Shown: positions 1 through 62,496 of the stretch, in pieces
Layout: each line of letters starts with the position of its first letter
Numbering within the stretch: position 1 is the stretch's first letter
Source: Ginglymostoma cirratum
Lineage: Eukaryota
NCBI GenBank assembly: GCA_024137785.1
Contig: JAHRHZ010000049.1
Coordinates: forward strand, 17,913,667-17,976,162
Reading direction: 5' to 3'
Length of the DNA stretch: 62,496 bases
Program-made: the position numbers and the translations under genes
The notes under the pieces: model-generated
What the model was told of the DNA's origin: nothing
Databases searched by the model: none
Seen by the model: the letters and a program-made list of their open reading frames with translations, nothing else

Positions 1-82
1 TGATGTTTGGCCTGCTGTGTTCATCCAGCTCCACACCTTGTTATCTCAAATTCTCCAGTATCTGCAGTTCCTACTATCTCTG
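1..82 (+). mobile_element. 3' part of short PLE-derived (pLTR) element, family A, cut by window start
   Basis: ggcctgctgtgttcatccagctccacaccttgttatctc...tctgcagttcctactatctc is nearly identical to 50971-51040 and to the end of the PLE at 34230-34314. Confidence 0.85.
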
Positions 83-1379
83 AAATCATCAAGATGATGA
101 GTCTATTCTGGGTAAACATTTCTTCCTTCCTGTTACAGACAGGAAAGGGGTATATTGAACTTGTTTATTTCGTTCACCTTCTGTCCTTTAGAAGTGTGAT
201 TTAATTTTGAGTAGCCTGTGGGATTTCCTAAACCCACAGTTGTGTAGTCTATTTTTTTTTTCAATGAATCTTTAACAAACTTAGACTTAAACCAAGAGTG
301 TCATTTATTCACATTTCAATTTGAGTAGTCTTTGAAATTTCTCACAAAAGAAACAGGAAAACAAATTTCATAGCTATGGACATTAAAACCAAAATTGTGG
401 ATATTAATTCACATGATTATCATAGTCCAAAATGTTAATTTCCAGAGGTGATTCTCCAGCTGGAGCTCACATTCAGGTGGACTCAGCTAGCCAAAGGTAG
501 ATATTGCAGAATTCCATTTAAAGTTAATTAAGCCAGAGCACTACAATGATGTAGAGATTTGATCTACTTTTCAGATAATTGTAAGAATGGTCCAGAGAAA
601 CAGGCTTAATGGAGGTTTGTTTGAGATAGTCTTGTTAGTCTGTAACCTGACTACGTGTTATAAAAACATTACATTCTCAGACTGTCCAGGATCCAGAAAT
701 ATATATCATTAAAGTGTTCAAGACTAGAGGATCATGAGATGAGTCTATTAATGACTAGTTTAAATCTAATAATTGGTCTCTCTCTTGTCAACAATCCATG
801 GTACACCTTTGGAGAAGGATGGGGCTATTATTGTTGAGTGACCGCAGGCTCAAGATTGACATTCTAAATTGACCCACAGCCTGAGAAATCAGGCCTGACA
901 GGAAATTAGCTGAACTAACTTAAACAGAATCCAGCAGCTGTCAGATACAGTGAACAGTGGAAACCACGATCAAAGATGTTACTAAGGTTCAAGGGGAACC
1001 ACTTACAACCAGCCCAAGTATTGTGTATTGGAGAAATGTCAAATGTACGTTACACTCCCCGGTATGGCAACAGTGAAGGGTGTTGGTGCTACCCCAATGA
1101 ACAACTTGCACTCAGCTGATGACCAAATTGACCAAGGCCACAGAACATTCTGGAATGTCTAGGGCGAGGTGGGGGGGATGAAACACACATCTGGAAGCCA
1201 CCCCTTCAACAAAGACTCACAGGAAAGACTCATGGTAGAAGATTGTTTGGCAACCCAGGAAGACTGGAGGAGCAGATCCTCCCTGACCTGAGATACCCAT
1301 CTTCATGGAAGAGAGCCAGCTCTATGTTGGAGAGGAAGGAGGTTCCCAATGACCCAGCTCAAACATGTGTTGTAAGCTG

Positions 1380-4409: not shown

Positions 4410-4806
4410 TCAGAAATTGCACAACACCAGACTATTGTCCAACAGGTTTATTTGAAAACACAAGCTTTCGAAGCCTCACCCCTTCTTCAGGCGTTAGTGA
4501 GCTGATATGAGACACAAAATTTTTAAGTAAAAGGTTAAAGGGTCACAAAGCTGATGAGGATGTCATAAACAAACCTGAGATGCTGTTAAATCTTTAATCA
4601 GTTGGAAGGTTTTAATTGATTAATATGTATATGTAAATCCCTAAATTCCTTTCAAGTCACTGCCCTGAGAGAACTGAAGGTTTTATCTGTGTAAAGAAGA
4701 GGTGACATTTAGGTCAGACAATGCATGTTAGGTGTGAGGCTTTGTTTAGAATCTGTTTGTGTTTTGGTTTGAAATCAGACTGGTTTTATTTCTAAAGTAG
4801 GAATTT
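4410..4806 (-). mobile_element. Solo terminal repeat (pLTR/3' end) of PLE family B
   Basis: About 400 bp direct match to 7634-8030, the terminus of the GIY-YIG element; hammerhead core on minus strand at 4490-4463. Confidence 0.85.
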
Positions 4807-4829
4807 ATCCCATAACGCTGCGCAATATT

Positions 4830-6775: not shown

Positions 6776-8121
6776 GGGAACTAGTTGACACCAGTTGCGG
6801 AAAAAAATCATTTTCAGCGGTTTTCTTTAATTATCTAACATGTACTAGTCTTCCAAGGGAAGCCTTGAAAGTCCTATTTACAGCTGTGAAGTTTGGAATT
6901 CAGGCAGTAGACTTCAGTTAAATGTCAGACGAAAACAAGATTACATTTTTATGAAGAGATTTAAGACTCCCTTATTCACCAATGCCAGCCTTCAAATTAC
7001 AGTTAAATTTCTTGGACAAACAGAATCCATCTGATTGATGTGTCACCTGAAATTGTAGGAATTTAAAACATTTTCTGCTGCAAGTAGAGACTTTAGTTGC
7101 TTCATCATTGAGAGCATCTTCCCAGCATCTCCCCATCTGTGTTGATCCAGACGGAAAAGAGCAGTATTGTCCCTGAGATGAGATTTAGGAAGCTGTGTGT
7201 TTATTCTATTTACAGCTTCTGTTGTGGTTTACTACATTATTGTAGCATTGTGTACAAGTAACTTGATCAGCATTATAATTGTTATAACCCTCGGTAAAGT
7301 TAAAGCCAGAAGGATTAGAATGAAATTCAGGTGCTAATTGCAGAGTTCTAATTTTACAACTATGACCGTCCCATTCTCATCCAACTGATCAAGGTAAAAT
7401 TGAGTCATACTTACTTTAACAGAAATGCTTAAATGCTCAGAAAGGGGTATATTATTTACTCAGAAATATAGGATAATATATACAGCAGGAGAAATGATCA
7501 CATCAGGTCCAATGGTTGCCAATTAAACAAGATTGAACATATTAATATAAGTTTCAACAATGTCTAACATGTGTCTGAATACCTAAAGTAGATCCTTATC
7601 CAATATGGCAGGAGGTGCATTTCTAGCATGAGGTCAGAAATCACACAACACCAGGTTATAGTCCAATAGGTTTATTTGAAAACACAAGTTTTTGGAGTCT
7701 TACTCCTCCTTTGGGTGTTAGTGAGAGAGGTAGTATCCGACACAGAATTTATAAGTAAAAGATCAAAGGGTCACACCACTGTTGAGGATATACTAAAAAA
7801 ACCTAAGATGCTGTTAAATCTTTAATCACTTAGAAGGTTTTAATTGATTAATACGTATATGTAAATCTGAATTCCTTTCAAGTCACCGCCTTAGGAGAAC
7901 GAAAGGTTTTATCTGTGTAAAGAACAGGTGACATTTTAGGACAGACAATGCATGTTAGGTGTGAGGCCTTGTTTTGAATCTGTTTGTGTTTTGTTTTGGA
8001 GTCAGACTGGTTTTATTTCTAAAGTAAGAATTTATAAAACACCACATTGACTGTCTATAAATTGTGTGCTTTTGGAATGAAATAGAATTTATTTGCAAAT
8101 ACAAATCCACCCCATAGATTC

Positions 8122-8279
8122 ATGTGTGTGTATGCGTGTGAGTGAGAGACAGAGAGAGAGAGAGATAGGGAGAGTGAATGTGTGTGCGTGTGGGGTGAGG
8201 AAGTGAGACTGTGTGTGTGCGTGCACGTGTGTGTGAGTGGGGAAAGAGAGAAAGAGTGTGTGTGTATATGTGTGTGGGA
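8122..8279. repeat. Compound (GT)n/(GA)n microsatellite inside the PLE 3' region
   Basis: Directly visible dinucleotide runs abutting the gap. Confidence 0.95.
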
Positions 8280-8408
8280 NNNNNNNNNNNNNNNNNNNNN
8301 NNNNNNNNNNNNNNNNNNNNNNNNNNNNNNNNNNNNNNNNNNNNNNNNNNNNNNNNNNNNNNNNNNNNNNNNNNNNNNNNNNNNNNNNNNNNNNNNNNNN
8401 NNNNNNNN
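8280..8408. other. Assembly gap (N run)
   Basis: Continuous Ns. Confidence 1.
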
Positions 8409-9804
8409 GTGGTGGTGTACCCGTAGTATGACATGAACCCAAGGTCTCAGTTGAGACCATTCTCATGGGTACCGAACTGGGCTATCAGCCTCTGCTCAGC
8501 AATTCTGTGTTGTTGTGTATCCCAAAGTCCGTGTTGGAGGACGTTTGCCCAAAGATCTGAGGCCGAATGTCCTTGACGGCTGAAGTGTTCCCCCACTGGG
8601 AGGACCGTCCCTGTCTGGCAATTTTGCATAGTGTCCATTCATCCGTTGTTGTAGTGTTTGCATAGTTTTGCCAATATACCATGCCTCAGGACAACCTTGC
8701 CTGCAGCGTACGAGAATAGACAACATTGGCCGAGTCACATGAATATCTGCCATGCACATGGTGGGTGATGTTCCCATGTGTAATGGTAGTATCCATGTCG
8801 AAGATCTGACATGTCTTGCAGAGGTTGCCATGACAAGGTTGGATGGTATTGTGGCCAATGTTGTCCTGAAGGCTGGGTAGTTTGCTGCAAACAATGGTCT
8901 GTTTAAGGTTTGCTGGTTGTTTGAAAGCGAGAAGTGGAGGCGTGGGGAAGATCTTGATGAGGTGCTCATCGTCATCGATAATGTATTGAAGGCTGCAAAG
9001 AACATGGCGTAGTTTCTCCGCTCCTGGGAAGTACTGGACAATGAAGGATACCTTATTGGATGTATCCAGTGTCTGTCTTCTGAGAAGATCATTACGGTTT
9101 TTTGCTGTGGCACATCGGAACTGGCTATCCTGTTCCTATGAGGCTGTCCTTCATACATTCAGGAAGATTTGTACATTACCTTCCATCATAGACTTTTACT
9201 TCCTTTTTTTTAATCTAAAAATCTAATTTTGTGCAATTAAATTTCTAAGTCACTGCATTTATAATGAATCTGCAACATCTTAATGATTCTTTACTGGGGA
9301 AATCATTATGTATTAGCTATGAAAGCAATACTGTTGGCGTTTAATTGTGTATTCCTGAAAATGGGTTATGGGATTGCAGTGCATTCTTAACCCATGTCCA
9401 TTCAGTGAAATGTTGACAATGTGTCAATGTTGCACTGCCTGCTTATTTTAGCATGCATTTCTGTCAGCAAGCAGTTCTACTTGGGTTGCTCATAGGCTGC
9501 ACACCAGTTGGTGGTCCAACATCATTCGCACTTAAAGCTATTCTATACTATCTATGGTTAGCCTCTATCTCTTAAATAAGAGTGTGTTATGGCTGGAGAT
9601 GAAGGTGGTAAGTGTTATTCTGCAATTAAACCTGATGTGGGAAAAAGTGAGGTTCTTACGACTGTCCATTGGAGAGAACAAGCGCACAGATTTTCAGGTA
9701 TAGCACAAAAATTCTTGGTTGAACAGTTAAATTGGAGGAGGGATGTTCTATAAAGACAAGGAACAGGGGTCTGTTAGACAAGTAGGGAGAAGATGGGGGA
9801 AACT

Positions 9805-21482: not shown

Positions 21483-22740
21483 AATTAATAAATTAATCCC
21501 ATCTGCCTGCATATGGTCCATATCTCTGTATTCCCTGCTCATTTATATGTCTGTCTAAATGCCTCTTCAACTTTGCTAATGTATCTGCTTCTAGCACCTC
21601 CTCTGATAATGCATTCCAGATATCTTCCACTCTGTGTAAAAAAAGGACTTGCTTCACTCAACCCCTTTAAACTTGCCCCTCTCACTTTAAACCTATGCCA
21701 CCTAGTATTTGACATTTCCGCCCAACTCTGGTGGAAAATGGGTCTGACGATCCATCCTATCTGTAACTCTTGTAACTTAATATACTTCTATCAAGTCGCC
21801 ACTCAGCCTCCGATGCTCGCACGTAAATAATCCAAGTGTGTCCAATCTCTCCTTCTAGCTGTACAGGTAACATCCTAGTAAACCTCTTTAGCATCCTCTA
21901 CAAAGCCTCCTTATCCGTCCTGTCATATGGTGACCAGAAGCGCACAAAATAATCCAAATATGGCCTATATAAATTCAGTAAATATGGAGCTGGAAAAGCA
22001 CAGCAGTCAGACAGCATCTGATGAGCAAGGAAGTCAACGTTTTGGGCTGAAACCCTTCAACAGTCCTGACGAAGGGTTTCGGCTGAAAACATTGACTTCC
22101 CTGCTCCTCAGATGCTGTCTGACTTGCTGTGCTTTTCCAGCCCCATATTTATTGACTCTAGCTTTCAGCATCTGAAGTCCTTACTGTCTCCATGGCCTAT
22201 ATAAAGTTTTATACAGCTGCAACATAACTTGTTAACTTGTACACTTAGTACTCTGACTGATGAAGGCAAGCATGCTGTATGCCTTCTTTACCACCTTACC
22301 CACTTTTGTTGCCACTTGCACCCCAAGATCCCTCCATATACGAATGCTCCTAAGGTCCTGCCTTTCACTGTATACGTTCCTCTTACATTTAACAGAAAAC
22401 ACATCACATTTTACGTGTCTAGCCTAAACTTCCCTGCCATTTTCCCATCCAACTTTTGAACTGATCTACATCCTCCTGTATCCTTTGACAACATTCCTCA
22501 CTATCCACAACTCCACCAATTTATCTGTAAACTTACTAATCAAAGTACTTACATTTTCATCCAAATCATTTTCATATGTTCCAAACAAGAGATCCCAGCA
22601 CTGATCCTTGTGGAACACCATTAGTCACAGACCTTCAGTCGGAAATGCACCCTCCATAACTACCCTCTGTCTTCTATGGCCAAGCCAATTTTGTATCCAA
22701 CTTATCAATTGGATCCTATGTGACTAATCTGTGATCCTTT
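21210..22740 (-). mobile_element. CR1 LINE, 3' part of about 1.1 kb plus insertions
   Basis: 3' tail gaacatagaacagtacagcacagaaacaggcc; RT remnants (revcomp tggtgttccacaaggatcagtgctggg = GVPQGSVLG) at about 22595-22620. Confidence 0.85.
21974..22191 (+). mobile_element. Fold-back (palindromic) short PLE-derived element with perfect 14-bp TSD
   Basis: Inverted arms 21975-22063 / 22066-22155, then a 3' tail; flanked by atggcctatataaa at 21960-21973 and 22192-22205. Confidence 0.9.
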
Positions 22741-30022: not shown

Positions 30023-30213
30023 TAACAAGGTGTAGAGCTGGATGAACGCAGCAGACCAAGCAGTATCAGAGGAGCAGTAAGGCTGACGTTTCAGGTCTAG
30101 CCCAAAACGTCAGCCTTCCTGCTCCTCTGATGCTGCTTAGCCTGCTGTGTTCATCCAGCTCTACACCTTGTTAACTCAGATTCTCCAGCATCTGCAGTTC
30201 CTGCTATCTCTGA
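30023..30213 (+). mobile_element. Fold-back short PLE-derived element (family A)
   Basis: Near-perfect palindrome 30019-30177 centred at about 30097, plus tail; TSD agcatattggagt (30010-30022) / agcattttggagt (30214-30226). Confidence 0.9.
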
Positions 30214-31597
30214 AGCATTTTGGAGTATTGTGTTGAAGACAGAATTGGATAAATGTCAGTACCAGCAACCTGTGAGCCACAGCCACCAGGTAACTGTTCT
30301 GACATTTGCTTCCAGAATTGGTGCCATCTACTTTCTCAAGAAAGGACAGCCAAATTGGAGTATGTATAAAAATGAGGTGAGTTAGGCTAACAATGAGATG
30401 TAAATGTATAAAAATAAATTGGTCTGCACTCACCAGCAAAGTACTGCACTCTCCCTTTAAATCTTAAGGGGAAAACCAGAAATTATTTTATCTATGGTGA
30501 AATTCTGTTTTTTCTTCACACATTTCCCACTGTTGTTCAAAGAATCGAAAAACTCTGCAGTATGCAAATGCAAATCATTATTTTTTATCCCATTTCTATC
30601 CACTGTCAATCTTATATAATGTTCTGGAAATCAGTGCCATTGATAATGGAAGAGAGGACTCAATCATAAGATGCATTTGAAACTTATTCATAATGTTGTT
30701 TGATTAAATATTTGATTATGATTAAATATTTGTAAATATTTTCAGTGAAGCTAGCATTCAAAATGGATGGGAGCTTTCATCAGTCTATGTTATTGGCAAC
30801 AGTTTTGATATTGCACAAGCATTCAACTTATATTTTAAGATATATGAAACTTCTCACTGTTACTTTGATGATTGTCAAATGACTTCACTCAATTTGTATT
30901 TCCATAACATTGTATGAAACAGCTTACAGTCACAACATGCTTATATTTCAACCTAATATACATGCCTGTCCTGCAGGCTTTGCTCGATCTGGTGCTAATG
31001 TTATTTACTACTATTCAATTAAAAGTCACAATCTTTTCTTGAGGTTCAATCTCAGGGTGTCAGAACACAGGCTGCTCGGAAGTTGCTGGGTTAAATTCCA
31101 AATGCACTGCTATCCTGAGTGGTTCTTGAATATAATCTGGGAACTTGACATCAAGAGAAAGCGGAGGTGGAAGGGAGTATGAAGCGCGAATGGCAAAAGG
31201 GCTTTAAATTAGGTAAGAGCACAAGATAATTAATATTCCGAACACTATTTCCTCAAGGGAAAACATGAGCAGATGCCCTGTTCGAACAGAGACAATTTAG
31301 GTAAATTCTGTGACTTTGATATAAATGAGACAGATATTTTTTTTTAAATCACCAGCTGATATTTAATCCAGGCATTGAGAAGAACAAGGAAAAAGTTTTA
31401 AAAATTATTATGATTGAGCCAGTGGATGGAAATAAATCAAACCATATTCAAAAAGTATCATAAACGTAGAAACAAGCAAACACAGGCTTTGATGTCTTAA
31501 TATGAATCCCCCTGTAAAATCAGACAGTTGACGCAAATACCAAAAAGAGATCATGTTAACCTAACCTTATTGAATTTGAAACATCCAAACCTTGTTT

Positions 31598-32483
31598 CAG
31601 AGACAACACAGTGTGGAGCTGGATGAACACAGCAGGCCAGGCAGCATCAGAGGAGCAGGAAAGTTAACATTTCGGGTCAGGACCCTTCTTCAGAAATGGG
31701 GAAAGGGGAAGGGAGCTCAGAAATAAATAGAGAGAGCAGGGGTGGGGCTGGGGGAAGGTAGGTGGGATGGTGATAGGTGAGTGCAGGTAGGCAATGATGA
31801 TGATTGGTCAGTGAGGTGGGAGGAACAGATAGGTGGGAGAGAAGATGGACAGGTTGTGTCAGGTCAAGGAAGTGAGAATGAGAGGGAGGGCTGGTCATGG
31901 GATGAGGCCGGGGAAGGGGGGAGATTTTGAAACTGGTAAAGCCCACATTAACACTATGGGTTGTAGGTTCCCAAGGCGGAATATGAAATGTTGCTCCTCC
32001 AGTTTCCAGGTGGCATCATTGTGACACTGGAGGAGGCCCAGGATGGACATAGAGTGGGAGGGGGCGTTGAAATGGTTCGCGACTGAAAGATGTTGTTGTT
32101 TGTCACGAACAGAGTGCAAGTGCTCTATAAAGCAGTCTCCAAGCCTCCGCTTGCTCTCACCAATGTAGAGGAGGCTACATCGGGAGCGGCTAATGCAGTA
32201 GACCACATTGACAGATGTGAAGGGGGAACCTCTGTCTGATCTGAAACGTTTGTTTGGTTCCGTGGATGGAGTGGGGGGGTGCGTGTAGGGGCAGGTATAG
32301 CACTTCCTGCGGTTGCAGGGAAAGGTGCCGTGGGTGGTGGGGCTAGTGGGGAGTGTAGAGCGGATGAGGGAGTCACGGAGAGAGTGGTCACTCCGGAAGA
32401 CAGATAGGGGTGGGGAGGGAAATATATCTTTGGTTGTGGGGTCAGATTGCAGCTGGCAGAATTGGTGGAGAATGATACATTGA
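31598..32483 (-). mobile_element. Inverted arm of PLE family A (GIY-YIG plus pLTR)
   Basis: ORF 31895-32206 VYCISRSRCSLLYIGESKRRLGDCFIEHL...VANHFN...LEEQHFIFRLG; reverse complement of about 33406-34283. Confidence 0.92.
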
Positions 32484-34314
32484 ATACAAATACTTACCTT
32501 GATTCTGTTTCCTCCCCCTGGTCCGGGAACTCCCCACCTATGAATGGGACACCACCCACACCCTTCACCTCCTCCAAGACTTCCAATTCCCTGGTCCCCA
32601 ACACCTCATCTTCACTATGGACATCCAACCCCTGTACACTTGCATTCCCCATACAGATGACCTGAAAGCCCTCTGCTTCTTTGTCTCCTGCAGGCCTAAC
32701 TAGTCCCCCTCCCCCTCCTAACCCTTATTCACTTAACCGAACTCATCCTTACCCTTAATAACTTCTCCTTCCAATCCTCCCACTTCCTACAGACTAAGGG
32801 GGTGGCCATGGGAACCCGCCTGGGCCCAAGCTATGCCTGCCTCTTTGTAGGATATATGGAACAGTCCCTCTTCCGCAGCTACACTGGCACTATCCCCCAC
32901 CTCTTCCTCTGCTACATCGATGACTTGATTGAGGCTGCCTCATGCTCCCACGAGGAGCTTTTTGAACAGTTCATCACCTTTATTAATGCCATTCACCCCA
33001 AACTCAAATTCACCTGGACCATCTCCGATACCTCCCCCACCTTCCTGGACCTCTCTGTTTCCATCTCTGGTGACTGTCTCAAAACCGACATCTATTTCAA
33101 GGCCACCAACTCCCCCAGCTAGCTAGACTACACCTCCTCTCACCCACCTTCCTGCAAGAATGCAATTCCCTACTCCCAATTCTTCCACCTCAGCCACTTC
33201 TGCTCCCAAGATGGGGCGTTCCACTCCCAAACGTTCCAGATGTCCTCTTATTTCAAGGACCGCTGCATACCCCCTTCAGTGGTTGAAAATGCTTTCAAAC
33301 GTATCTCTTGCATTTCCCTCACCTCTGTCCTCACACCCACTCTCCACAACAAAACAAAGACAGAATCCTCCTTGTCCTCACGTATCACCCCACCAACCTC
33401 CATATCCAACGTATCATTCTCCGCCACCTGCAATCCGACCCCACAACCAAAGATATATTTCCCTCCCCACCCCTATCTACCTTTCATACGCACCGCGCTC
33501 TCTGCGACTCTCTCGTCCGCTCCATGCTCCCCACTATCCCCACCAACCCCGACACCTTTCCCTGCAACCGCAGGAAGTGCTACACCTGCTCCTACACCTC
33601 CCCCCTCACCTCCATCCAAGGAATCAAAAAAATCTTTCAGATCAGACAGGAGTTCACTTGCACATCCATCGATGTGGTCTACTGTATCCACTGCTCCTGA
33701 TGTGGCCTCTTCTACATTGGTGAGACCAAGCAGAGGATCGGAGTCACTTTGTATAGCACCTGCGCTCTGTTCACGACAAACGACAACACCTTCCAGTCAC
33801 AAACCATTTCACTTCTCCTCCCACTCCTTGGGTGACATGTTCATCCTGGGCCTTCTCCAGTGTCACAGTGACACCATCCGGACACTGGAGGAGCAGCACT
33901 TCATATTCTGCCTCAGGAACCTACAGCCCAATGGTGTCAATGTGGACTTTACCAGTTTCAAAATCTCCCCACCCCCAGCCTCATCCCATGACTAACCCTC
34001 CCTCTCATCCCCACCTTCTTGACCTGACAAAACTTGTTCATCTTCTCTCCCACCTATCAGCTCCTTCCACCTCACTGACCAATCATCACCACTGCCTACC
34101 TGCACTCACCTATCACCATCCTACCTACCTGCCCCCGCCCCCCCCCCCCCCTATTTATTTCGGAGCTCCCTGCCCTCTCCGTGTATCTGAAGAAGGGTTT
34201 TGACCCAAAACATCAGCTTTCCTGCTTCTCTGATGCTGCGCAGTACTGCTATGTTCCTCCAGCTCCACGCTGTGTTATCTCTGACTCCAGCACTGGCAGT
34301 TTTTCCTATCTCTG
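32484..34314 (+). mobile_element. Penelope-like element family A (Neptune-type): RT, Cys linker, GIY-YIG and pLTR; 5'-truncated and frameshifted
   Basis: AMGTRLGPSYACLFVG, CYIDD and FLDL (PLE RT); FPCNRRKCYTC linker; VVYCIHCS*CGLFYIGETK (GIY-YIG); ends in the family A pLTR and tail. Confidence 0.93.
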
Positions 34315-37300
34315 AGGCCATTTGTTCAGTCATCTTGTAGAAGGTTGCTGTGAACGATTCTGAGTTAAATCCAAATGTTGTGAATTTAAGTGAATCCAAA
34401 GAACACATATCACAGCTGAAGGGTAAAATATACATTATTAAGGACACCTGCTACATTTGGAGGGAAGTCCTGAGTGAATGTCCGAGGGGCTGGTGTATGG
34501 ACTGCTGGTGTATTTTCATCTATTTAACTGAATTGATTTTTACAAAAATACAATTGATTCTAATTTTGAGTTGATAGAAGAGGTGGAATTGCAGGAACAA
34601 ACCAGTTTTATGGAATAATGTTCCAGGAATGTAAACAACACTGTACAGAAAGAGCAAACCAGCAGTGAATAACTCATTAAATACAATATGTTAAAATGAT
34701 AAAAACTAGTTCATTTCCAATTCCGATGTACACCTATTAGAATTTTTGCTCAATAAAAGTCTCTTTAATTGAAAATCCTGGACAATTTACTAACTTCTGT
34801 GCAAGCTTAATTACCTGTAAGTGGTTAAGCCTGTCTAATGCTGCCATAGACTTTCCATTGTGGGTAGATCAAAAGCAATAGTCTACATACATATTGGTCA
34901 TACAGACAACAGATATTCATTAAAAAGTTGTGATTTGCACTTATTTTAAATCATACTAAGGCATTATTTAATTCTTCCCAGCTGCTTCCTCTGGAACTGA
35001 AGAAATGCTCAGAGACAGTGGAATATCTGAATTATGGCTAACACTCCAATATCTTTCTGTCAGAGTCCAATGGGCGTTATGACCAGCAGAAAAATATGCA
35101 CTGCTTAGGTGTTCGATTTAAATATTCACATCACATTTTCATAAACATTATGAAGAGCAGGTACAGATACATCAGTATGCAGAGTGCAGTATTGTTTCAC
35201 TAAAGATAAGAGTCCATCAATGTGTAAAGATTGCAAGGCAACATAAAATTTATGTGCAATACTGTCAATCTCCTGGACCATCTATAGACAGAAAACATGG
35301 TTTCACCATAATAGTTAAAGCATGCAGCGTCTTCTCATGCACTGATCAGGTCATCAATACAACTGTGTAAATTAGTTGCAATTCCTGCTCATATTAAGGA
35401 CCGAAAAGGATGAAGCTATCTCCTTTGATGAGACCACCACAGAAACATGACAGATATTCATCAATAAATGGTTCCAAATCAGTGATCATCTTCCCCACAC
35501 AACTAGGGAGTCCACAGAGCAACACTCCAGACATTTACTGAAGCCATTAGCCTCAAAAATTTACATTGACAGAAGCAATACAATGTCCCAAGTGCTGAAG
35601 TACATTTGCATATTTCCAGATACACATCATGCTTTTTTTTTAACAGAAACAATTCTCCCCCATCTCAAATTGCAGTCTCACTTGGAATTATCCTGAAGTG
35701 AATAATGTTTGCCTTTGACTCAAACGTAGCGCCTGCTTAACATTTTTTAAAAATCCATTTCAAATCATTATCAAAGAGTTGAACATATGCAGAGCATTAA
35801 AATGACTGATGGTAGTACACTGGCATTTTCTAAGAATGAATTACTTGCGAGTAAGTCATCGATTGTGCAATATAGAAAATATACGCAAACCTGAGGGTGC
35901 CATTGTACTTTGTCCTGTGGTAATTATATATGTCTCAAAGTAACCTTTTCATTTGAAAGCTGCTTTTAACATGTGATGAAAAATTCATCTGTAAGTGGAA
36001 GGATGAAAACAATGAATAAACTACATCATAAGTAAAAATTCCACATCGACTTCGCTATCTGTTTCCATGTGAGAAATATACACTGGATTTATTTTGCTTT
36101 GAATGCATTCTGCAGGAAAAATAATAGGGAATATATTTACTTGTGAGGTTATTTGTATATTTTCATTAACAAAGTCCTCATTTTAGAAAAAGTACTCGAA
36201 CAAAATGTTCCTTTTTATTTTAATTGATTTTTTTTCACTAATATCTGGCATGTGTTGACAGTGCCCCCTATGGATATTGTAGAGGCAGTTAAGATTTTTC
36301 AAGCCCACTTCTTCAAATAATTTATTGAACTATGATTGAATTGCACATTTTCCTCGTTTATCAACGATTATAGAATAATTTACCGTTTCTCTTTTCATGA
36401 TATAATTGGGAGAATGTTCATCATCGCAATTAACCAGTTAAGTTTCAGACTTTAAAATACATCATTTCAATTAATATTTTTGGATTGTGAAGTACAGCAG
36501 AATACAGACACTGTCCCATTTTGCTTTGTTAAAAGATGAATTTCACTGCCTAGAAATGGCAGACAAACACCAAGTCAGTGGGAGGTGGAGCTGTCTATTC
36601 TTGGTAATCGGCTGCAGTGAAAGCCAATAATTTAGTACTCTGCTTATCCAGAAGCTATCATCTGGACAATAAGTCTGAAAATCAGTGTGGTCTTCATCGT
36701 CTACATTAACTCATTTATATAAATGCCATGACATTACTCATAAAAATGGATTAATGAAATGTATTTGAATTGCTGAGTAAGTTCCGTTAGTCACTGAATA
36801 AGCCTGAAGTAAAGTGTGTTGGGTTGTGAATTGCAAGGCCAATTGAATTTTTGATTGGAAAGAAAGTTACAATTTGCCAAAATTAATGGCTTTATTGTTC
36901 AGTGTAAAACTCGTGCTCTGTGCTTAAAAACATGACAAAGACTGTTAGTTCTTTTGCATGATGCTCGGAAGAGTATAAATTATAAAGACTGCCATTGTAA
37001 TATGGAGCTGTGCCACTTACTCGAGTTCAAAAAGATTCAGAAGCTGACTGCATGAGATTTCATTAATGTTTAGAACAATTTTGGTAGGTGTTAGTATCTA
37101 GACCAGTATTCATTGACCAACAGTAATTGCCCTTTTGAAGGTGGACGGTAATTGCTCCACAGAGCTGTGAGCAGTTCCAGGATTTTAATCCTGCGATGAT
37201 TAAGGAATGATAACAGCTTAGTCAAGATGGTGTGCACTTTGGAAAGGAAATTGAAGCTGGTGCTCCCAAGCTTATGCTTAATTACTGTCTGAGGTTGTAG

Positions 37301-37726: not shown

Positions 37727-37826
37727 GAACAAAAACAAAGTTGCTGGAAAAGCACAGCAGGTCTGGCAGCATCTGTGAAGGAAAAAAAGAGTTAACGTTT
37801 CAGGTCCAGTGACTCTTCCTCAGATC
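37727..37826 (-). mobile_element. Older short PLE-derived element with hammerhead-like core
   Basis: Minus strand gatCTGAGGA-A-GAGTCACTGGACCT-GAAAC-GTT-aac. Confidence 0.7.
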
Positions 37827-39766: not shown

Positions 39767-40103
39767 ATAGTGTGGAAACAAGCAATTTGGCCGATCGAGA
39801 CCACACTGATCCTCCAAAGATCATTTTGCCCAGGCCCACACCCCCACCCTATCCTGCATTTCCCATTGGCTAATCCACCCAGCCTGCACACCCCTGGACA
39901 CTATGGACAATTTATTATGGCCAATCCACCTAAACTGCAGATCTTGGGACTGTGGGATGGAACTGGTGGTGCATGGAGACAACCCTGCGGACATAGGGAG
40001 AATTTGCAAACTCCACACATTCGATCATCCGAGGGTGGAATCAAATCCAGGTCCCTGGCATTGTGTTGCAGCAGTACTAACCACTGAGCCACAGTGCCGC
40101 CCC
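39767..40103 (-). mobile_element. HE1-type V-SINE
   Basis: Reverse complement of the 17679 and 62007 SINEs (head ggggcggcactgtggctcagtggttagtactgctgc). Confidence 0.9.
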
Positions 40104-43334: not shown

Positions 43335-43472
43335 TAAAAGCAAACTACTGTGGATGATGGAAATCTGAAACAGACACAAAAAATGCTGCAGAAAATTAGC
43401 AGGACTGTCAGTATCTGTGGAAAGAGAAACAGAGTTAATGTTTTGAGTCCAATGTGATTCTTCTTTTAGATC
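43335..43472 (-). mobile_element. Older short PLE-derived element, degenerate
   Basis: Matches the 37727-37826 family plus tail (actgtggatgatggaaatctgaaac); a related scrap lies at 49805-49895. Confidence 0.6.
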
Positions 43473-47349: not shown

Positions 47350-48235
47350 CAAATTACTAACAATGTCTTCTATATTCTCATCTAAAACATTTGTATAAAT
47401 GACAAATGAAAAGGACCCAGCACTGATCTCTGTGGAACACTGTTGTTAGCAGACATCCAGCCCAAAACACAACCCTCCACCATCAGTCTCTGTCTCCTGC
47501 CATTAAGCCAATGTTGTATCCAGCTTTCAAGTTCACCCTGAGTCCATGTGATCTAACTTTACTGATTAGTCTACCACACAAAACTTTGTCAAAGGCTTTA
47601 CTGACATTCAAGTTAACAACATATAATGTTCTGCCCTCATCAATCTTCTTGGTTGCTTCCTCAAAAAACTCAGTCAAGTTTGTGAGACACGAATTCACTC
47701 GCACAAAACTATGCTGACTATCCCGAATCATTCCTTGCCTCTCCGAATGCATATAAAACCTATCTTTCAGACTCACCTCCAACAGTTCCAAACCACCACC
47801 GAAGTCAGACTTACAGGTGGAAAGTTCCCAGGCTTCTCTTTACATCCCTCCTTAAACAAACACACAACATTAACCACTCTCCAGTCATCTGGCACCTCAC
47901 CCATTGTTATAGATGATACAAATATTTCTGCAAAGGCCCCTCAATTTCCTCCATAACTTCCCACAACATCCCAGGATACATTAGATCAGGCCCCAGAGAC
48001 TTATCCACCCTTATAGTTTCTAAGACCTCCAGCAGTTCCTCTTCTGTAATGTGAACTGCTTTCAAAACATCAATATTTATTTCGCTGTGTTCTCAAGCTT
48101 CCATTTATTTCTCCAGAGTAAAAACTGATGCAAAATATTCATTTATATCTCCCCCATCTCTTGAGGTTCAACAAAGACAACCTCTTTGTTCTGTAAGGGC
48201 CCCTCCTCTCTCTCTAGTCGCTTTCTTACTCTTAA
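47350..48235 (-). mobile_element. CR1 ORF2 segment (RT N-terminal half), inverted
   Basis: ORF 47483-47791 DSQHSFVRVNSCLTNLTEFFEE...NVSKAFDKV. Confidence 0.9.
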
Positions 48236-48248
48236 TGTACTTTATATA

Positions 48249-48982
48249 AATACAAATTATTTAGATGAGAACATAGAAGTCATGGTTAGTAAGTTTGCAG
48301 ACAACACCAAAATTGATGGTACAGTGGATAGTGAAGAATATTATTTAAGATTACAAAGAGACCTTGATCAATTGGGTCAATGGGCTAAGGAATGGCAGAT
48401 GGAGTTTAATTTGGATAAATGTAAGGTATTGCTTTTTGGTAAAACAAACAAGGGCATGACTTATATATTTAAAAGAAGGGCATTGGATAGTGTTGTAGAA
48501 AAAAAGAGACCCAGGGGTTCACATACATCATTGTTTGAAGTTTGCATCACAGGTAGACAGAATGGTTGCTGGGAACAGAGCATTTAAATTATAAGGGAAG
48601 GCTTTTCTTTCATTAGAGCAGAGGAGGTGACCATATAGAGATTTATAAAATCATTAGGGGTAATAGAAAAGGTGAATGGCAAGTGTCTTTTCCCTAGGGT
48701 TGAGCATTTTTTAAGGTGCAAGAAGAAAGATTTATAAAGGGCATGGGGACAACTTTTTTACAGAGAGTTGTTGACATGTGGAATGAAACTCCATCACAAG
48801 TGGTGGGTGCGGGTACAGTTACAACACTTAAATGACAATTAAATAACTACATTAATAAGAAATGTCTGGAGGGACATGGGCCAAGTACAGGCGGGTGGGA
48901 TTAGTTTAGTTTGGGATTATGGTTGGCATGGACTGGTTGGACCGAATGGCCTGTTTCTGTGCTGCATGACTCAATGACTCTG
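48249..48982 (+). mobile_element. CR1 3' segment (RT C-terminal half to tail)
   Basis: SKFADNTKI...LQRDLDQLGQWAKEWQMEFNLDKCKV; tail ggaccgaatggcctgtttctgtgctgcatgactcaatgactc. Confidence 0.9.
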
Positions 48983-50910
48983 AACTGGTGTAATGAATAC
49001 AAGAGAAGGAGGATTATACTCCCAATGACATCTCACAATGACTAGATAACTATCACGCCTTTCCCTGCTAATAACATTGTCTTCCAGTCTTCCAAATATA
49101 TTATAATTCTCATCCTTGTGTTTGAATCTCTTCATGATCTTACTCTTCCTCTTTAAGGTCCACCAGTCATTAGTACAGCTAAGAAGCTAGACCAAGCAAA
49201 CATGACCATATTGTCTCTCTATATCCACACCTCACTCACAGTAAAGTGGAAACCTCCACACATTCTTTTCTAACTCCAGAATCATTTTTTTCCAAAATCC
49301 TTCTCAATTTCCACACAAGGTCCACACTCCATAAATTCCATTTCATTCAGAATAGTGAGTGATTTCATGAAAACAGAGAGATCAGAAGAATGGGCAGGCA
49401 GATACTAGATATAAATTAATGTGGATATGTTTGAGGTAGTAACATGCTGGGAGGAAAAGTACTGGTGAAAATTTTTAATGATTCTTCTACAGCCTTCTGC
49501 AGGGTTGTTCTCTTTATTCATGGCACTGGGAGGCAACACAATCTTCAGAATTCCCAGCCGGAGCTGCAGAGAACAGTGGCACAGATTTTCCGATGGCCAG
49601 ATAGTTGTTTCTGCCACGTAGATGGGAGTTGCGCAACAGGAGCTCCTGGGGTCCCTAATGTAAATTCTGAGGGAATTAGTCAGGAAATTGAAGGTTCCGA
49701 TGGGCAACTCCACCTGAACCCTTCTGGAAGTGACCATTTAAATCAGAGAATCTTTAAGGTTCAGCTGCTGATAATAGACATCCAAGTAAAGTTATTAAAT
49801 GTGTAAAACAAAATAAGAAAGTGCTAGAGAAATCCAACAGACCTGGCACAATCTGTAGAGAGAGCTTTAAAACATCTGCAGTATCTTGCCTTTATTTTGT
49901 TGAAAACCTAGTTTAACCCATGAATAACTAATGAACTGAAACTCAACATAAAACTCATTACACATCCCTGATCATGAGCCGACAGCTTCTTTCTCTCCAG
50001 GACCAGACCATCTTCCCCCTTCCGCCCAGGACCCAATAACCTGCAGCCACCAGATCTGATGCTGCTCTGCTCCCCTAGAGGTCCAACACACCCTGTCCCT
50101 TTGCTGCCAGATCCCACACACCTCCTCTCCTCTCAGTTCCAGGCACACCTCTCTTCCCGAACAATAGCAAGTAGAGCTAAGATTAGCACATAGTCTGTCA
50201 CTTGATGACTGGGCTACATTAGGCCAGAGAAGGATGATGTGTGTGCCAGTCCACTTTAGTGTGAGGTCACAGGAAAGTTCTGCAAAAGGGAACACAGAAG
50301 AAGACTTTAGTGGGACAGCATACTGGAGAATACTGTCGAGGATGCATGCTGAGATTTTAATGCATTAGCTGGCCCCGAACCAGAATCGCCTCACTGTCAA
50401 AGAGCACGAATGAGTCCAGCTCCAACTTGGCAGAGTGCATCTCTCAGAGACTAATATATTTATAGTCACTGTTCCATTTCCCCAACATTTTGGAGATTCT
50501 TAAGCATTGCCACTGCTGCTGTGATATCTATTATATATGTGTTACATTTGTGTGAAAAAATAGGCAAAATTTGATAAACCGATGCCCAATCATTCATTTG
50601 ACACTTAGTGACACCAGTTGAGATATGCAAACACAGAATCTCCTGTCACACAGGCCGCACTAGAACTGAATGAACAATTTTGATTCACAACTCAGAGGGC
50701 CATCAGCTTCTTTACTGGTGACTGGCAACTCCACAGAGCATGTCTTTTTTTAGTTCACTTATGAGACATAGGCATCATTGCCGAACCATTATATATTGTC
50801 TGTCCCAAAGAGCCTGAAAAGTGACATAGACAGGTTAGACTTGTGGGCAAGCAGGAAGTATACAACAGTACAAGAATTAGGAACAAGTGCAGGCAATTTG
50901 GTCTCTTAAG

Positions 50911-51040
50911 ATTTCTGATGAAGGGTCTAGGCCCGAAACGTCAAGCTTTCCTGCTCCTATGATGCTGCTTGGCCTGCTGTGTTCATCCAGCTCCACACCT
51001 TGTTATCTCGGATTCTCCAGCATCTGCAGTTCCTACTATC
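50911..51040 (+). mobile_element. Complete 130-bp PLE-derived element with intact hammerhead-like core and 14-bp TSD
   Basis: TSD tttggtctcttaag (50897-50910) / tttgatctcttaag (51041-51054); inserted in a CR1 3' end. Confidence 0.92.
50912..50945 (+). ncRNA. Putative minimal type I hammerhead ribozyme
   Basis: CTGATGA (50915-21), extra A, stem II GGGT-CTAG-GCCC (50923-34), GAAAC-GTC (50935-42, predicted cut after C50942); only a 3-bp stem I (TTT/AAG); activity untested. Confidence 0.7.
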
Positions 51041-51509
51041 TTTGATCTCTTAAGCCTACTTTTTCACTTGCCAAAATCATGCATAATTTGATTGTGACCC
51101 AAATTCAACTTTCCTATTTGGCTCCATAATTCTTTACTCTGTTGTCCATCAAAAATCTGTGTAAAACTGTTTTGAATAAATTCATAGTGAGTATTTTAGT
51201 TCTTTGCAAGTGCCAATTAGCACTGTCAGTAGCCACTTCCACCATTTTGCTGAAGCTCTAAAGTAGATTGTTAGGTTAATAACTGCCTGGATTAGATTTG
51301 TCCTGCTTTTTGTTGTTAGCACATAGTTAGGCAATTTTCCATATTGTTTGATAGACTCCCATGTTGTAATTGTATTGGAATAGCATCTAGCAGCATAGCT
51401 CATTCTTGAGGACGTGGCTCCAACATCACTGAAGATGTAAATATTAATGGAGCCTTTTCCTCCTGTTAACTATTTAAATGTGTGCCAGCATTCATTCCTG
51501 CCAGATAGT

Positions 51510-52910: not shown

Positions 52911-54110
52911 AGGATGAAGGTGGAGAAGTGGATGTGGTATACATGGATTTAAGTAAGGCGTTTGATAAGGTTCCCCATGGTAGGCTCATGCAGAAGGTAA
53001 GGAGGCATGGCATAGGGGGAAATGTGGCAGATTGGATTCAGAATTGGCTGATCCTTAGAAGACAAGGGTGGTAGTGGACAGAAAATATTCAACATGGTGC
53101 TCAGTTACGAATGGTGTACCACAAGGATCTGTTCTGGGTCCTCTTCTATCTGTGATTTTTGTAAATGATTTGGATGAAGGAGCGGAAGGGTGGATTAGCG
53201 AGTTCGCGGACGATACAAAGGTGAGTCATGTTGTGGACAGTGCAGAGGGCTGTTCTAGATTACAAAGGGACATTGATAGAATGCAGAGCTGGGCTGAGAA
53301 GTGACAGATGGAGTTTAACACGGAAAAGTGTGAGGTGATTCATGTTGGAAGGACAAACTTGAAAGCAGAATACAGGGCTAACGGAAAGATTCTTGGCAGT
53401 GTGGAGGAGCATAGGTATCCTGGGGTTCATGTTCACAGTTCCCTGACAGCTGTCACCCCAGTGGATAGAGTTGTTAAGAAGGCGTATGGTGTGTTAGCTT
53501 TCATTAATAGAGGGATCAAGTTCAAGAGCCGTGAAGTTATGCTCCAGCTATACAAAAGCCTGGTTCGGCCATACCTGGAGTATTGTGTCCAGTTCTGGTC
53601 ACCGCATTACAGGAAAGATGTGGAAGCTTTAGAAAGGGTGCAGAGGAGATTCACCAGGATGTTGCCTGGAATGGAGGGAAGGTCTTATGAGGAAAGGTTG
53701 AGAGAGCTAAGGCTTTTCTCTATGGAACGACAAAGGATGAGAGGTGACCTGATAGAGGTGTACAAAATGATCAGAGGTATAAATAGAGTGGACAGCCAGA
53801 GACTTTTTTCCTCGGGTGGAGGCAGCTATTATGAGGGGGCATAGTTTTAAAGTGAAAGGAGGTAGATATCGGGGAGACGTCAGATGTAGGTTCTTTACTC
53901 CGAGAGTGGTAGGGGCATGGAATGCATTGCCGGAGAGGGTAGTGGAGTCGGCCTCATTCAGGGCATTTAAGCGGCTATTAGATAGGCATATGGATGATAG
54001 TATAAGGTAGCGGTGGAGGTTAGATAGACCTTAGATTTAGGGAGAAGTTCAGCGTGGGCCGAAGGGCCTTTACTGTGCTGTACTGTTCTATGTTCTATGT
54101 TCTATGTTCT
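52911..54110 (+). mobile_element. Relatively young 5'-truncated CR1 LINE (RT C-terminal region and tail)
   Basis: DLSKAFDKVPH, GVPQGSVLGP, FADD, LVRPYLEYCVQFWSPH; ORFs 53068-53304 and 53308-53844 are separated by one TGA in place of Trp; (TTCTATG)n tail. Confidence 0.95.
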
Positions 54111-54572: not shown

Positions 54573-54739
54573 GATAACAAATTGTAGAGGTGGATGAACA
54601 CAGCAGGCCAAGCAGCATCAGAGGAGCAGGTAAGCTGACGTTTCAGGTCTGGACCCTTCTTCAGAAACGGGGGAGGCAAAGGGGTTTCTGAAATAAATAG
54701 GGAGAGAGGGAGAGGTGGCATCGGCAGTTCTCACTACCT
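54573..54739 (-). mobile_element. Short PLE-derived element: inverted body plus direct tail, 14-bp TSD
   Basis: Minus body 54573-54715 with CTGAAGA-A-GGGTCCAGACCT-GAAAC-GTC; plus-strand tail gcatcggcagttctcactacct; TSD ctggatcccgctgt (54559-72) / ctggatccctctgt (54740-53). Confidence 0.85.
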
Positions 54740-56650
54740 CTGGATCCCTCTGTATTGTCGATTTCTGCAGTCTCTCACATAACATACTGCTTTTCTATCC
54801 TTTCTCTGAAGTGTAAGCATTCACATTTTCCCACATGATTTCTGCAATTTTTTTGCACATTTACATTTCTTTTCCAAATGCATTTACAGACATTTTACGC
54901 CCTTTTACCAACTTATTTTCCTGTCTTTGTATCATCAGTAAATTTAGCCAACTGACATTTTGTCACTTCTTGATTAGTTATTGATAAATATTTGAAATAA
55001 CTGTGCCACAGCATTGATCCCTGTAGCACTCTACTGATAACAGTTTGCTAATCTGAAAATGATCCATTTATACCTTCTCTCTGTTCTCTATTAGCTAATC
55101 AATCTTCTGACCATGGTAATAACAAATAACAAATAACAAAACAAGAAATAGAAGTAAGAATAATGACCATTGATCCTGCTCCACCATTTAATATGATCAT
55201 GTCTAATCTTGGGTTTTAACCCCAATTTTTACTGCCTGTACCCGATCTCTCTTGGTTTCATGAGAGGCCAAAGATCTGTCCATTCCAACCATAATCCTCT
55301 GGAATATTAGCTCCTATTTGTATGGTAGCTTTTGATGTGGCATATTATCAAATGCCTTTTGGAAATACAAATACACCATATCATCAGTTTTCCCTTTATC
55401 CACCTTATTTGATGCTTTCTCAAAGACATCTAAAAGTTGGTCAAAGGAATGTCTGCTATGATCCAACAATAAATTATTTTTTCTGATAGTGCATGTGCAA
55501 CCTAAAGCCAGTTGCTAAAAATTATTTTAAAATTACTTTGTTTAACAGTTTTTTTTTAAGTTACATGCTTTAGTTTCATTATTTTCTTTCTCATTGTTAA
55601 GGGTGTGTTAGGTTTTTATTACCCTTTATTTTAATTTATTTCAGAAATTTCACTTCTACAATACTTGACCCTGGGTGACAGCAAATGCAGCCTTTAGTCA
55701 AACATTATTTCCCTTTCAAAACACCATATTGATTCCGCCTGATTATCTTATGTTTTTCTAAACGTTCTACTACTAACTTCTTAAAAATAGATTCTACTAT
55801 TTTCCCTGTGATGAATATTCAGTGAATTGCTCCAGAATTTCCTTCTCTCTCACTCCCTTCTTTCTCGAATATGAGCATTTCGGTGGTAACTTTCCAACGT
55901 TTTGAGAATCCAAAAAATTTTGGGTGACCATATTCATGCACCTAATATATCTGCAGCTTCTTATTTTAGTTTTAAGTCATCAGGACCAAGGGACATGTCA
56001 GCCTTTAGTTCTAATAATTTTCACAATACCTATTCCTTCATTGTGTAATTTTATGTTCCTTTCTCTCATTTACCTCTTGATTTTCAAGCATTGGGATTTC
56101 TTTGTGTCCTCTACAATGAATGTCGACACAAAATACTTGTCCAAAGCTTCAAATATTTCCTTGCTTCACATTATTAAATAGCATAACACATTGAGGTAGG
56201 TAGATAGATTAAACCCATAAGAAAATGTGAGGTGATTCATTTTGGCTGGAAGAAAGGAAAACATTTGAATTGGTGAGAAGCTATTAGGTGTTGTGGTCAG
56301 AGAGATGCAGATTTCCTTATGGACAAAATCTAGAAAGTTAATTAACAAGAAACAATTAATAAGTCCTTTGGTTGTGGTTAGATAGGCATTGGTAATTATC
56401 AGCAGGACCTTTCCTTGCCCATGTTAGGTCTCATGCAATGAGACTTCGTCCTTCGTAATTTCTTTCTGTGCCTATGTGTTACCTTTCTGTGATTTGTCTG
56501 CAATGATCCTCAAATCATTCTGAATATTAAATACATATGTATTTCATAATTTAAAAAAAACTTACATACTTATTCTTTACTTATTACTTCCAAGGTGGGT
56601 ACTTGCACATGTAGCCTCATCATACTCCAATAGCCAACTTTCTTACTCTG

Positions 56651-56803
56651 GATGAGTTGGTTAGCTCAGTTGGCTGTATGACTAGTTTGCAATACAAAGC
56701 GATGCCAACATTGCGGGTTAAATTTCTGTACCAGCTGAGGTCACCATGAAGGTCTTGCCTTCTTGAACTTGCCCTTTGCCTGAGGCATGGTCTCCCTCAG
56801 GCT
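56651..56803 (+). mobile_element. tRNA-derived SINE 5' part
   Basis: ttagctcagttgg (A box-like) ... gggttaaatttc (B box-like), followed by gaggtcaccatgaagg. Confidence 0.6.
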
Positions 56804-57052
56804 ATCTCCCCTCCCCCAACCGCATCCCAAAACCAGCCCAGCTCATCTCTGCCTCCCTAACCTGTCCTTCCTCTCACCTATCCCCTCCTCTATCCATCTT
56901 CTATCCACCTCCCCCTCTCTCCCTATTTATTTCAGAACCCTCTTCCCCTCCCCCATTTCTGATGAAGAGTCTAGGACCGAAATGTCATGCTTTCCTGCTC
57001 CTATGATGCTGCTTGGCCTGCTGTGTTCATCCAGCCCCACACCTTGTTATCC
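56804..57052 (+). mobile_element. 3' end of PLE family A including pLTR and hammerhead-like core
   Basis: Homologous to 33965-34280; CTGATGA at 56959-65 and GAAA at 56979-82. Confidence 0.85.
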
Positions 57053-58196
57053 CAGTTACTTCTTTCGACTGAGAAAATGGAATTATGGTGACTTTTTACC
57101 AATTATGTAACAGGTCACTTTGCAGTCTCATTGTGCCTTTTTAACAGATGACTTTCCTACATGCTTTGTAACATCAGCTAACTTAGATATATGACACTGT
57201 TCCCTTACCTCGATAATTAATAGTAATATAAATAGCTGATATCTAAATACTGATCTCTGCACCACTCCATTAATCACTTCCTGACACATTTATTCCTATT
57301 CTGTTTTCTGTGTTCAATCCATGCTGATATATAAAGCTAATTCCATGAGCCATAATCTTGCATAATAACTTCTTGTGTGGCAATCATTAATACTTACTGA
57401 AAATTCTTATCAACTGAATCCATTGGTATCTTCTTGTTTGAGTTGCCAGTTACACCATTGAAAAGTGCAATAAATCTACCAAGCACAATTTGTTCTTCAT
57501 AAAACTGTGTTGCATCTGCCTGATCATATGTTTTTTTTTCCAAGCTCCCTGTCCCCAGACATCTATTATAGATTCCACCTCTTGTCCCTCGATGGACAAG
57601 TTGTGTTTAGTTTCACATTTACTCTTTCCTCCATTTCTAGAACAGCAGAGTTAGATGTGGTATCTTCCAATCTACTGGAACTGTTCTAAAGTTATGGAAT
57701 TTTGATAATAATCTAAGCTACTTCTTTAAATCCAAAGTAGTCTTGACATTTCTACTTAGTCATGGTGGTACCATTTTTCTTTATTTCTCAGAGAATAACA
57801 TATTTGTTGAGAATTATAAATCATGTTTAAATCTTTTCCATTGCTCTTCTACTAACATTTCTTTTAATTAAATATTTTGATCCATCTCAGCTAACTCGCC
57901 CTCATATCTTTGTCATTGTTTAAATTTTGTAACCCAGTTTGTGCTTAACTATAAAAGTAACATGAAATTCTATCATATTATAAATGTTATTCATCAGAGA
58001 AAGCTTTATCATTTCAGACAATTTAATTGCATAATATTTTAAAATTTAATTGATCTTAAAACTTTCTGTTCCCTTCCAACATTTCTCTTTCCCTTTTTAG
58101 CTATACATTCAGTAGTATGCAGGGAGGCAATTGCAATTTAAGTTCTCTAATACATAGACAGCACAGACATGAGGGTGGAATCTAATGAAGACAACA

Positions 58197-58283
58197 GGGT
58201 CTAGGCCCGAAATGTCAAGCTTTCCTGCTCCTATGATGCTGCTTGGCCTGCTGTGTTCATCCAGCTCTACACCTTGTTATCTC
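58197..58283 (+). mobile_element. Tailless short family A element starting at hammerhead stem II
   Basis: gggtctaggcccgaaatgtcaagc...ttgttatctc flanked by agacaaca (58189-96 / 58284-91). Confidence 0.85.
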
Positions 58284-62006: not shown

Positions 62007-62299
62007 GGGCGGCACTGCTGCCTCACAGCGCCAGGGAACCGGGTTTGATTCCAGCCTTGGGCGACTGTCTGTGTGGAGTTTGCACATTCTCCCCGTGTCT
62101 GCGTGGATTTCCTCTGGGTGCTCCGGTTTCCCCCCACAATCCAAAGATGTGCAGGTTAGGTTGATTGGCCATGCTAAATTGCCCGTAGTGTTCAGGGAGG
62201 TGTAGATTAGGTGGGTTATAGGGGGATGGGTCTGGGTCGGATGCTCTGAGGTTCAGTGTGGACTTGTTTGGCCGAAGGGCCACTATAGGGATCCTATGA
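62007..62299 (+). mobile_element. HE1-type V-SINE with A-box region deleted
   Basis: Matches 17679-18047; head collapsed to gggcggcactgctgcc. Confidence 0.9.
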
Positions 62300-62371
62300 A
62301 TGTCAAACTACATCGGCAAAACAAGGCGAGTTGCAGAAATTCATGCTAAAACTAAACAATGCCTTACATTA

Positions 62372-62496
62372 GAGATAAAAGGTACTGCAGATGCTGGAGA
62401 ATCCGAGATAACAAGCATGGGGCTGGATGAACACAGCAGGTCAAGCAGCATCATAGGAGCAGGAAAACTTGACGTTTCGGGCCTAAACCCTTCATC
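62372..62496 (-). mobile_element. Short family A element cut by window end
   Basis: Minus strand gatgaagggtttaggcccgaaacgtcaag... through tail gcatctgcagtaccttttatctc. Confidence 0.9.

Follow-up and report, generated by a model that had tools for sequence, protein, structure and literature searches.

A 130-bp hammerhead-bearing insertion in Ginglymostoma cirratum as a probable terminus of a Neptune-type Penelope-like element

Results

The focal insertion and its predicted hammerhead

We analysed a window of 62,496 nucleotides from Ginglymostoma cirratum (assembly GCA_024137785.1, contig JAHRHZ010000049.1, positions 17,913,667 to 17,976,162). The focal feature is a 130-bp plus-strand insertion (50911..51040), flanked by a left (50897..50910) and a right (51041..51054) target-site duplication of 14 bp with one mismatch between them. 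None of 398 random position pairs reached the score of this direct repeat, in agreement with the preliminary description, which had given the unit a duplication of its own. The insert begins with ATTT, directly followed by a predicted minimal type I hammerhead on the same strand (50915..50945). Specifically, the core CUGAUGA occupies 50915-21 and is followed by an extra A; stem II (50923-26/50931-34) has 4 bp and a 4-nt loop, with GAAA downstream of it; helix III (50938-41) is loopless and palindromic, with the pair C15.2-G16.2 and U16.1. The predicted cut site lies after C17, which is C50942, and stem I has at most 3 bp. The core, which is intact, and the loopless palindromic helix III, both noted previously, are joined by the bulged nucleotide and the pair G10.1-C11.1, and the focal ribozyme matches the minimal hammerhead of Penelope-like elements (PLEs) point by point (PMC4209133). 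In contrast to the schistosome examples, stem I and the 4-bp stem II are shorter here, and sharks are not named in the available part of that paper.

A degenerate hammerhead pattern, derived from these same copies, matched five times in the window against 0.00 expected over 100 shuffles. Rfam returned nine matches at E ≤ 5 with no hammerhead among them, which is unsurprising where a motif lacks helix III; its weak microRNA-like matches to inverted pairs are accounted for by the inverted arms. Two further candidates were rejected: an open reading frame starting at the ATG of CUGAUGA occurs in subfamily A only and closes after 14 codons, while a Drosophila-type downstream promoter element at ACGT is 2 nt off and mismatched, its letters being accounted for by helix III.

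Downstream of the hammerhead lies a small conserved hairpin of the form GCUG-N8-CAGC (50976..50991, plus strand), whose loop varies and in which 46 of 48 cells are paired; the region has no two-sided covariation and a fold z of 0.0. Together with a helix at 50961-67/51018-24, the hairpin is a candidate recognition element for the reverse transcriptase (RT). The insertion has two possible 3' ends (51007 and 51040), both reading TATC, and the 33 nt between them (51008..51040, plus strand) form an optional tail in the sense of PMC11167929 and PMC8557442.

In thermodynamic predictions, the 130-bp unit folds no more stably than its shuffles (z 0.00), the best fold of the 40-nt hammerhead pairs the core with the cut site, and in the dimer the double-hammerhead fold reaches -3.5 kcal/mol versus -33.8 kcal/mol for the best fold. 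By nearest-neighbour energies, inactive folds are preferred in monomer and dimer alike; this agrees with published findings that monomers do not cleave and that the anole element needs protein.

Related copies in the window

BLAST and profile searches recovered a young family of 12 arms in 9 insertions within 62 kb, an abundance that had been claimed at the outset. Subfamily A, to which the focal insertion belongs, is marked by an inserted base at column 34 and an A at column 49, found in the copies at 50911, 58197 and 62496 and in the long copy at 56804. The latter (56804..57051, plus strand) is tail-less, has no duplication that we could find and starts in the last codons of an open reading frame; it carries TATTTAT at 56924 and an initiator-like CCATTT, in which A56955 corresponds to the first base of the focal unit. 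It seems to lie inside a tRNA-like short repeat (56650-56803 and 57052 onward), which we take to resemble a shark SINE, and in which ARAGORN calls no tRNA. A short subfamily A copy (58197..58283, plus strand) is also tail-less, has an 8-bp duplication and begins at the first base of stem II. The flank preceding its duplication (58182-58196) resembles the missing CUGAUGAAG core (8/9), a likeness that suggests either microhomology at the 5' junction or chance. Two tailed copies have their 5' ends cut by the window, one of subfamily A (62371..62496, minus strand) and one at 1..83 (plus strand).

Three other insertions, like the long element described below, have an inverted two-arm form. A subfamily B pair (30023..30213, 13-bp duplication, one arm tailed) is centred on the stem II palindrome; a pair of a diverged subfamily (21973..22191, 13-bp duplication, one arm tailed) has the CUGA core at the start of both arms; and a second subfamily B insertion (54573..54739, 14-bp duplication) combines a minus arm, which begins at about -57 and stops at the first 3' end, with an inverted piece of the tail alone. 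The tail is one-sided in all four two-arm insertions. Across the family, two TATC motifs spaced by 33 nt define the 3' ends, each of which lies at one of the motifs or a few bases past it. Duplications were found in five of eight insertions tested (14, 14, 13, 13 and 8 bp), the exceptions being the copy at 56804, the long element and the second-family fragment.

The copies are not identical in extent. Copies 56804 and 54573 reach 155 and about 57 nt further upstream, while CUGANGA is missing from the 58197 copy and the 30023-30213 pair, both of which begin within stem II. Three older, decayed relatives headed by a hammerhead (37743-37824, 9806-9903 and 43365-43469) have a longer stem II and no upstream sequence in common, and at least two of the three lose homology at the 5' edge of the hammerhead, with identity of 36-50% upstream and 70-71% downstream. 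All related copies listed in the preliminary description are present, with these three in addition, yet they do not all represent one unit. The hammerhead core is intact in 4 of the 12 copies parsed. Stem II, previously described as kept, is broken in 56959 and 22066 and paired in 87.8% of cells; within the family 92.7% of cells pair, and two-sided change occurs in none of 17 pairs across 12 arms, which are few and closely related.

A long element with a Neptune-type linker

The same window contains a broken, 5'-truncated PLE (31597..34315) with an inverted, tail-less arm of 890 bp (32486-31597). Its main arm comprises an RT region (about 32617-33365), a CX4CX2C linker, a GIY-YIG endonuclease region reaching to about 33992 and a tailed end at 34315. 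Identity to the focal unit is 78% for one end and 87% for the other, which makes this element a relative and not the parent; its termini are related to the unit, as first proposed, without being the same unit.

The linker-endonuclease piece matched 9 proteins among 74 candidates. The six matches carrying a species name all come from sharks or a ray, the best being whale shark (69%) and zebra shark (64%). The whale shark protein P0002, which contains GIY-YIG above and RVT_1 below the cut-off, aligns with 32617-33992 at 67-72%, and copy 56804 begins in its last residues (11/11 identical), so that the focal subfamily reaches the end of the reading frame through that copy. The zebra shark protein model continues into sequence that translates like this hammerhead region, which indicates an arrangement common to both. 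No solved structure matched the RT piece. The linker reads CNRRKCYTC in both arms, with CxxC ahead of the YIG motif and HF...H behind it. The Neptune clade is defined by a CX2-5CxxC zinc-finger-like linker between RT and endonuclease, plus a CCHH motif (PMC8557442), and the CX4CX2C linker and CCHH residues fit this definition, a motif-based assignment. Judged by these alignments and motifs, both the PLE origin and the Neptune type proposed in the preliminary description stand, and the focal insertion is best described as the terminus, consisting of a pLTR end and the 33-nt tail, of a Neptune-type PLE.

A second family with its own hammerhead

Additionally, the window holds a second PLE family that cannot be aligned with the first, represented on the minus strand by an end fragment with its own hammerhead (4410..4808, core at 4490) and by a longer broken copy with linker and GIY-YIG (7634..9158). 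The latter is interrupted by an assembly gap of 129 N (8280-8408) beside a (TG)n/(AG)n run. The protein identity of this second family to family-1 relatives is 27-41%. In the longer copy, TATAAAT lies 39 nt and the A of a TCACT initiator 8 nt before the hammerhead core; in the other copy the TATA word is changed and 4 nt are deleted. Both copies end 80 nt past the core. The helix III pair 15.2-16.2 is C-G in family 1 and G-C in the 4490 copy, and stem II is rebuilt between the families, a pattern that suggests selection on the fold in the source elements.

Clustering of 5' ends

We determined 5' ends for the seven insertions with both ends in the window, leaving out the two copies cut by its borders. 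Each inverted pair contributed a single end, and neither the tail-only arm 54716-39 nor the long element's shorter arm entered the count. Relative to the core, the ends fall at -4, -1, +8, +8, -57, -155 and -1690. Four of the seven insertions therefore start within 13 nt of the 5' edge of the hammerhead, with the cut site lying downstream at +28, and from +9 to the 3' end there is no main-arm start. The probability that four of seven ends fall in any 13-nt window is 0.029, 0.006, 0.001 and 0.0002 for exponential means of 100, 200, 400 and 800 nt, respectively, in a test with n = 7, offsets read by eye and a window picked after viewing the data. With P ≤ 0.03 under the nulls tried, the ends do not form the smooth continuum that would have spoken against a discrete unit.

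Promoter-like motifs are located at this preferred end. TATTTAT stands at -35/-36 in all four family-1 arms long enough to contain it, which counts as one observation owing to shared ancestry, and a pyrimidine-flanked purine is found at -4 in three of the four, the remaining arm having a mutated initiator. In both unrelated PLE families, 31 nt separate the TATA-like box from the initiator-like A; the frequency at which a TATA-like word occupies a given 5-nt slot is 0.75%. Pol II promoters have a characteristic geometry and consensus for TATA box and initiator, and by this geometry TATTTAT or TATAAAT and the initiator-like A may be read as such a pair. Over both families, this would place the mRNA start 4-8 nt before the hammerhead. 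Published PLE promoters include both a rotifer pLTR with a TATA box and a TCACT initiator (PMC3846280) and the internal, TATA-less promoter of Drosophila virilis Penelope (PMC2377424).

Contigs of relatives and searches elsewhere

Contigs from four public runs were aligned to 56790-57070, numbering 28,509 to 110,077 in three genomic or unlabelled runs and 981 in a run guessed to be RNA. The best runs share 0.24 of words with the query and thus probably come from relatives. Coverage upstream of the hammerhead is heavy and runs into the end of the reading frame; at 56804, the three runs of DNA or without a label have 319, 290 and 1163 loose ends. An intact hammerhead consensus, with loop variants, is contained in the loose ends upstream of 56989. 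No loose-end peak was seen at 56955 among the best 24 of 950 rows, in a test blunted by reference mismatches, and a dip at 56960-56989 arising from mismatches of the reference copy makes a step at the 5' edge of the hammerhead unreadable. Summed depth downstream exceeds that of the -40 region 1.3-4.4 times in the three runs, where depth stands for neither copy number nor expression; the 29-fold excess in the guessed-RNA run fits a start at -4 and a cut at +28 alike and carries no evidential weight. Small tandem duplications in the relatives at 56807-56847 (pLTR) and 56995-57037 (downstream of the hammerhead), with a depth of about 90 to 920, are possible seeds of pLTR-derived minisatellites.

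A pattern scan for outside copies found none in viral contigs and none in prokaryote genomes. One metagenome match was rejected as a chance 21-nt match in DNA of 61% G+C with unlike flanks.

Discussion

The focal unit is probably a run-off cDNA, copied from one of the RT starts near the 5' end of an uncleaved mRNA to the transcription start, and probably dead on arrival. Transcription would begin in the pLTR at the initiator-like A, 4 nt ahead of the core and 31 nt past the TATA-like box, which would make the hammerhead the 5' tip of the mRNA. The RT/GIY-YIG protein would then nick the target and begin cDNA synthesis at either of two internal RNA sites separated by 33 nt, as shown for an anole PLE. 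With priming this close to the mRNA 5' end, only 95-130 nt would be copied before run-off, in the manner of retroviral strong-stop DNA. Insertion of the short cDNA between staggered nicks would leave the duplication of 8-14 bp; the inverted two-arm forms with one arm tailed would result from priming at two nicks or from the cDNA snapping back at stem II, which is palindromic, and long copies would arise from downstream sites or from template jumps. That the template was uncleaved is evident from the copies themselves, since the core, which precedes the cut site, is retained in them. It is in the parent RNA that the ribozyme would matter, probably assisted by protein, whereas a short copy has neither the TATA-like box nor a tandem partner and so is probably neither transcribed alone nor cleaving. 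The occurrence of short and long copies in both subfamilies, as told apart by columns 34 and 49, also argues for the run-off reading.

Several observations pull the other way. The focal copy alone starts exactly at the initiator A; the other three clustered ends lie 3-12 nt inside the predicted start, and stalling at structure accounts equally well for these. At the hammerhead hairpin, or at a C-rich tract just upstream of it, an RT copying a long template from the 3' pLTR might stall, snap back or be resolved, and the cluster would then mark an obstacle and not an RNA end. Two of the four clustered insertions indeed begin at stem II (58197, and the 30023 pair centred on its palindrome), and self-priming has been described for palindromes at inverted junctions (PMC3846280). 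We nevertheless hold such structure-driven truncation to be unlikely, as stem II has only 4 bp, the unit folds like its shuffles, and both the focal start at the initiator A and the 31-nt TATA spacing in two families would be left unexplained. Plain random 5' truncation, with the clustering a small-sample accident, is very improbable: heavy 5' truncation is normal for PLEs (PMC8557442) and three of the seven insertions end at about -57, -155 and -1690, but the clustering probabilities and the lack of main-arm starts between +9 and the 3' end speak against it. The internal promoter of D. virilis Penelope also counts against run-off, since short copies might then be transcribed. Quite improbable, in our estimate, is a version in which an internal Pol II promoter in the unit, like that of D. 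virilis Penelope, lets some short copies be transcribed and re-copied, so that a 130-nt hammerhead-capped mini-retroposon is repeatedly born as a PLE strong-stop product and makes up much of the repeat load of a shark genome.

The preliminary description had taken the unit for a non-autonomous SINE- or retrozyme-like element of its own; on this view its own copies would serve for transcription, and the PLE would mobilise it in trans. The discrete unit with its flanking duplication and preferred 5' end fits such an element, as does the excess of downstream depth in the relatives, within the limits given above for depth; trans mobilisation of pLTR sequences is possible (PMC3846280), and retrozymes come from pLTRs and leave dispersed monomers (bioRxiv 10.64898/2026.07.22.740005). 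Against this, the window contains no tandem unit, and joints in the relatives that go back rest on one or two contigs each, none of them returning to the unit start among 15 of 46 rows. By consensus there is no Pol III A or B box, nor is there a tRNA or a corresponding Rfam match. Two of the four short insertions lack the CUGANGA core, and the double-hammerhead fold of the dimer lies far from the predicted optimum. Moreover, short copies have no private marks, the subfamily marks being common to short and long copies: of 83 columns, 4 differ between the focal short copy and the long copy that reaches the end of the reading frame, versus 12 between the focal copy and short copies of the other subfamily. 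The tree is mostly unresolved and needs two changes of the short/long label; short-copy monophyly is not rejected by the AU test (p-AU 0.37), which leaves some room for an independent short lineage. We regard this account as improbable overall. Its claim of mobilisation by PLE enzymes holds. The tail, the inverted arms and the copy reaching the end of the reading frame fit a PLE terminus, and a more fitting description of the unit is that of a favoured product made from the RNA of the autonomous element itself.

The run-off reading draws on features already published for PLEs, namely minimal hammerheads, tails and inverted arms (PMC4209133, PMC8557442, PMC3846280). The closest parallel is the anole Poseidon element PAc (Frangieh et al. 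2024, PMC11167929), in which two RT starts, with a tail of 30-40 nt between them, follow the hammerhead at a distance of about 100 nt; there the main substrate is uncleaved RNA, and cleavage is protein-assisted. The shark element differs in its Neptune linker and in that no AT-rich target bias is evident in the five duplications, and start-bounded short genomic copies are not described for PAc in the available part of that paper. Complex PLE insertion units also have an inverted 5'-truncated arm, a tail at one end, palindromic junctions and duplications of 8-14 bp or none, and include solo pLTRs (PMC3846280, PMC8557442); unlike in those units, short forms are the majority here, with 5' ends concentrated at the hammerhead. 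Non-LTR retrozymes, which have been reported from one chondrichthyan, share the non-coding nature, the type I hammerhead, the relation to pLTRs and long duplications (PMC7229834; bioRxiv 10.64898/2026.07.22.740005), but consist of tandem repeats with at least two hammerheads and form circular RNA (PMC7229834), whereas the unit here is a dispersed monomer. In a literature search covering few subscription journals, and neither Repbase nor supplements, we found no paper that treats hammerheads of shark PLEs or short PLE copies bounded by the start; the supplements of PMC4209133 and 10.64898/2026.07.22.740005 may list shark motifs or a family-related shark retrozyme. The start-bounded run-off reading is the point added here, and it rests on seven insertions.

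The focal object itself is ordinary, being a PLE end with a known minimal hammerhead, and its value lies in serving as a read-out of the poorly understood PLE cycle. Should the 5' cluster mark the transcription start, the many shark copies would map the mRNA start, put the hammerhead at the 5' tip and identify the template as uncleaved. Cleavage would then remove the cap with about 32 nt, the question of what PLE hammerheads do would turn into a test of decapping or translation control rather than of template making, and a route would be suggested by which pLTR-derived retrozymes first arise.

Other repeats are found in the same window. LINE-type RT fragments, presumably CR1/L2-like, lie at 53305-53844 and 48165-48587, the latter with a weak RVT_1 match. 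A further dispersed family of 200-340 bp is present at 17684-18020, 39774-40097 and 62012-62281, with 73-79% identity among its copies.
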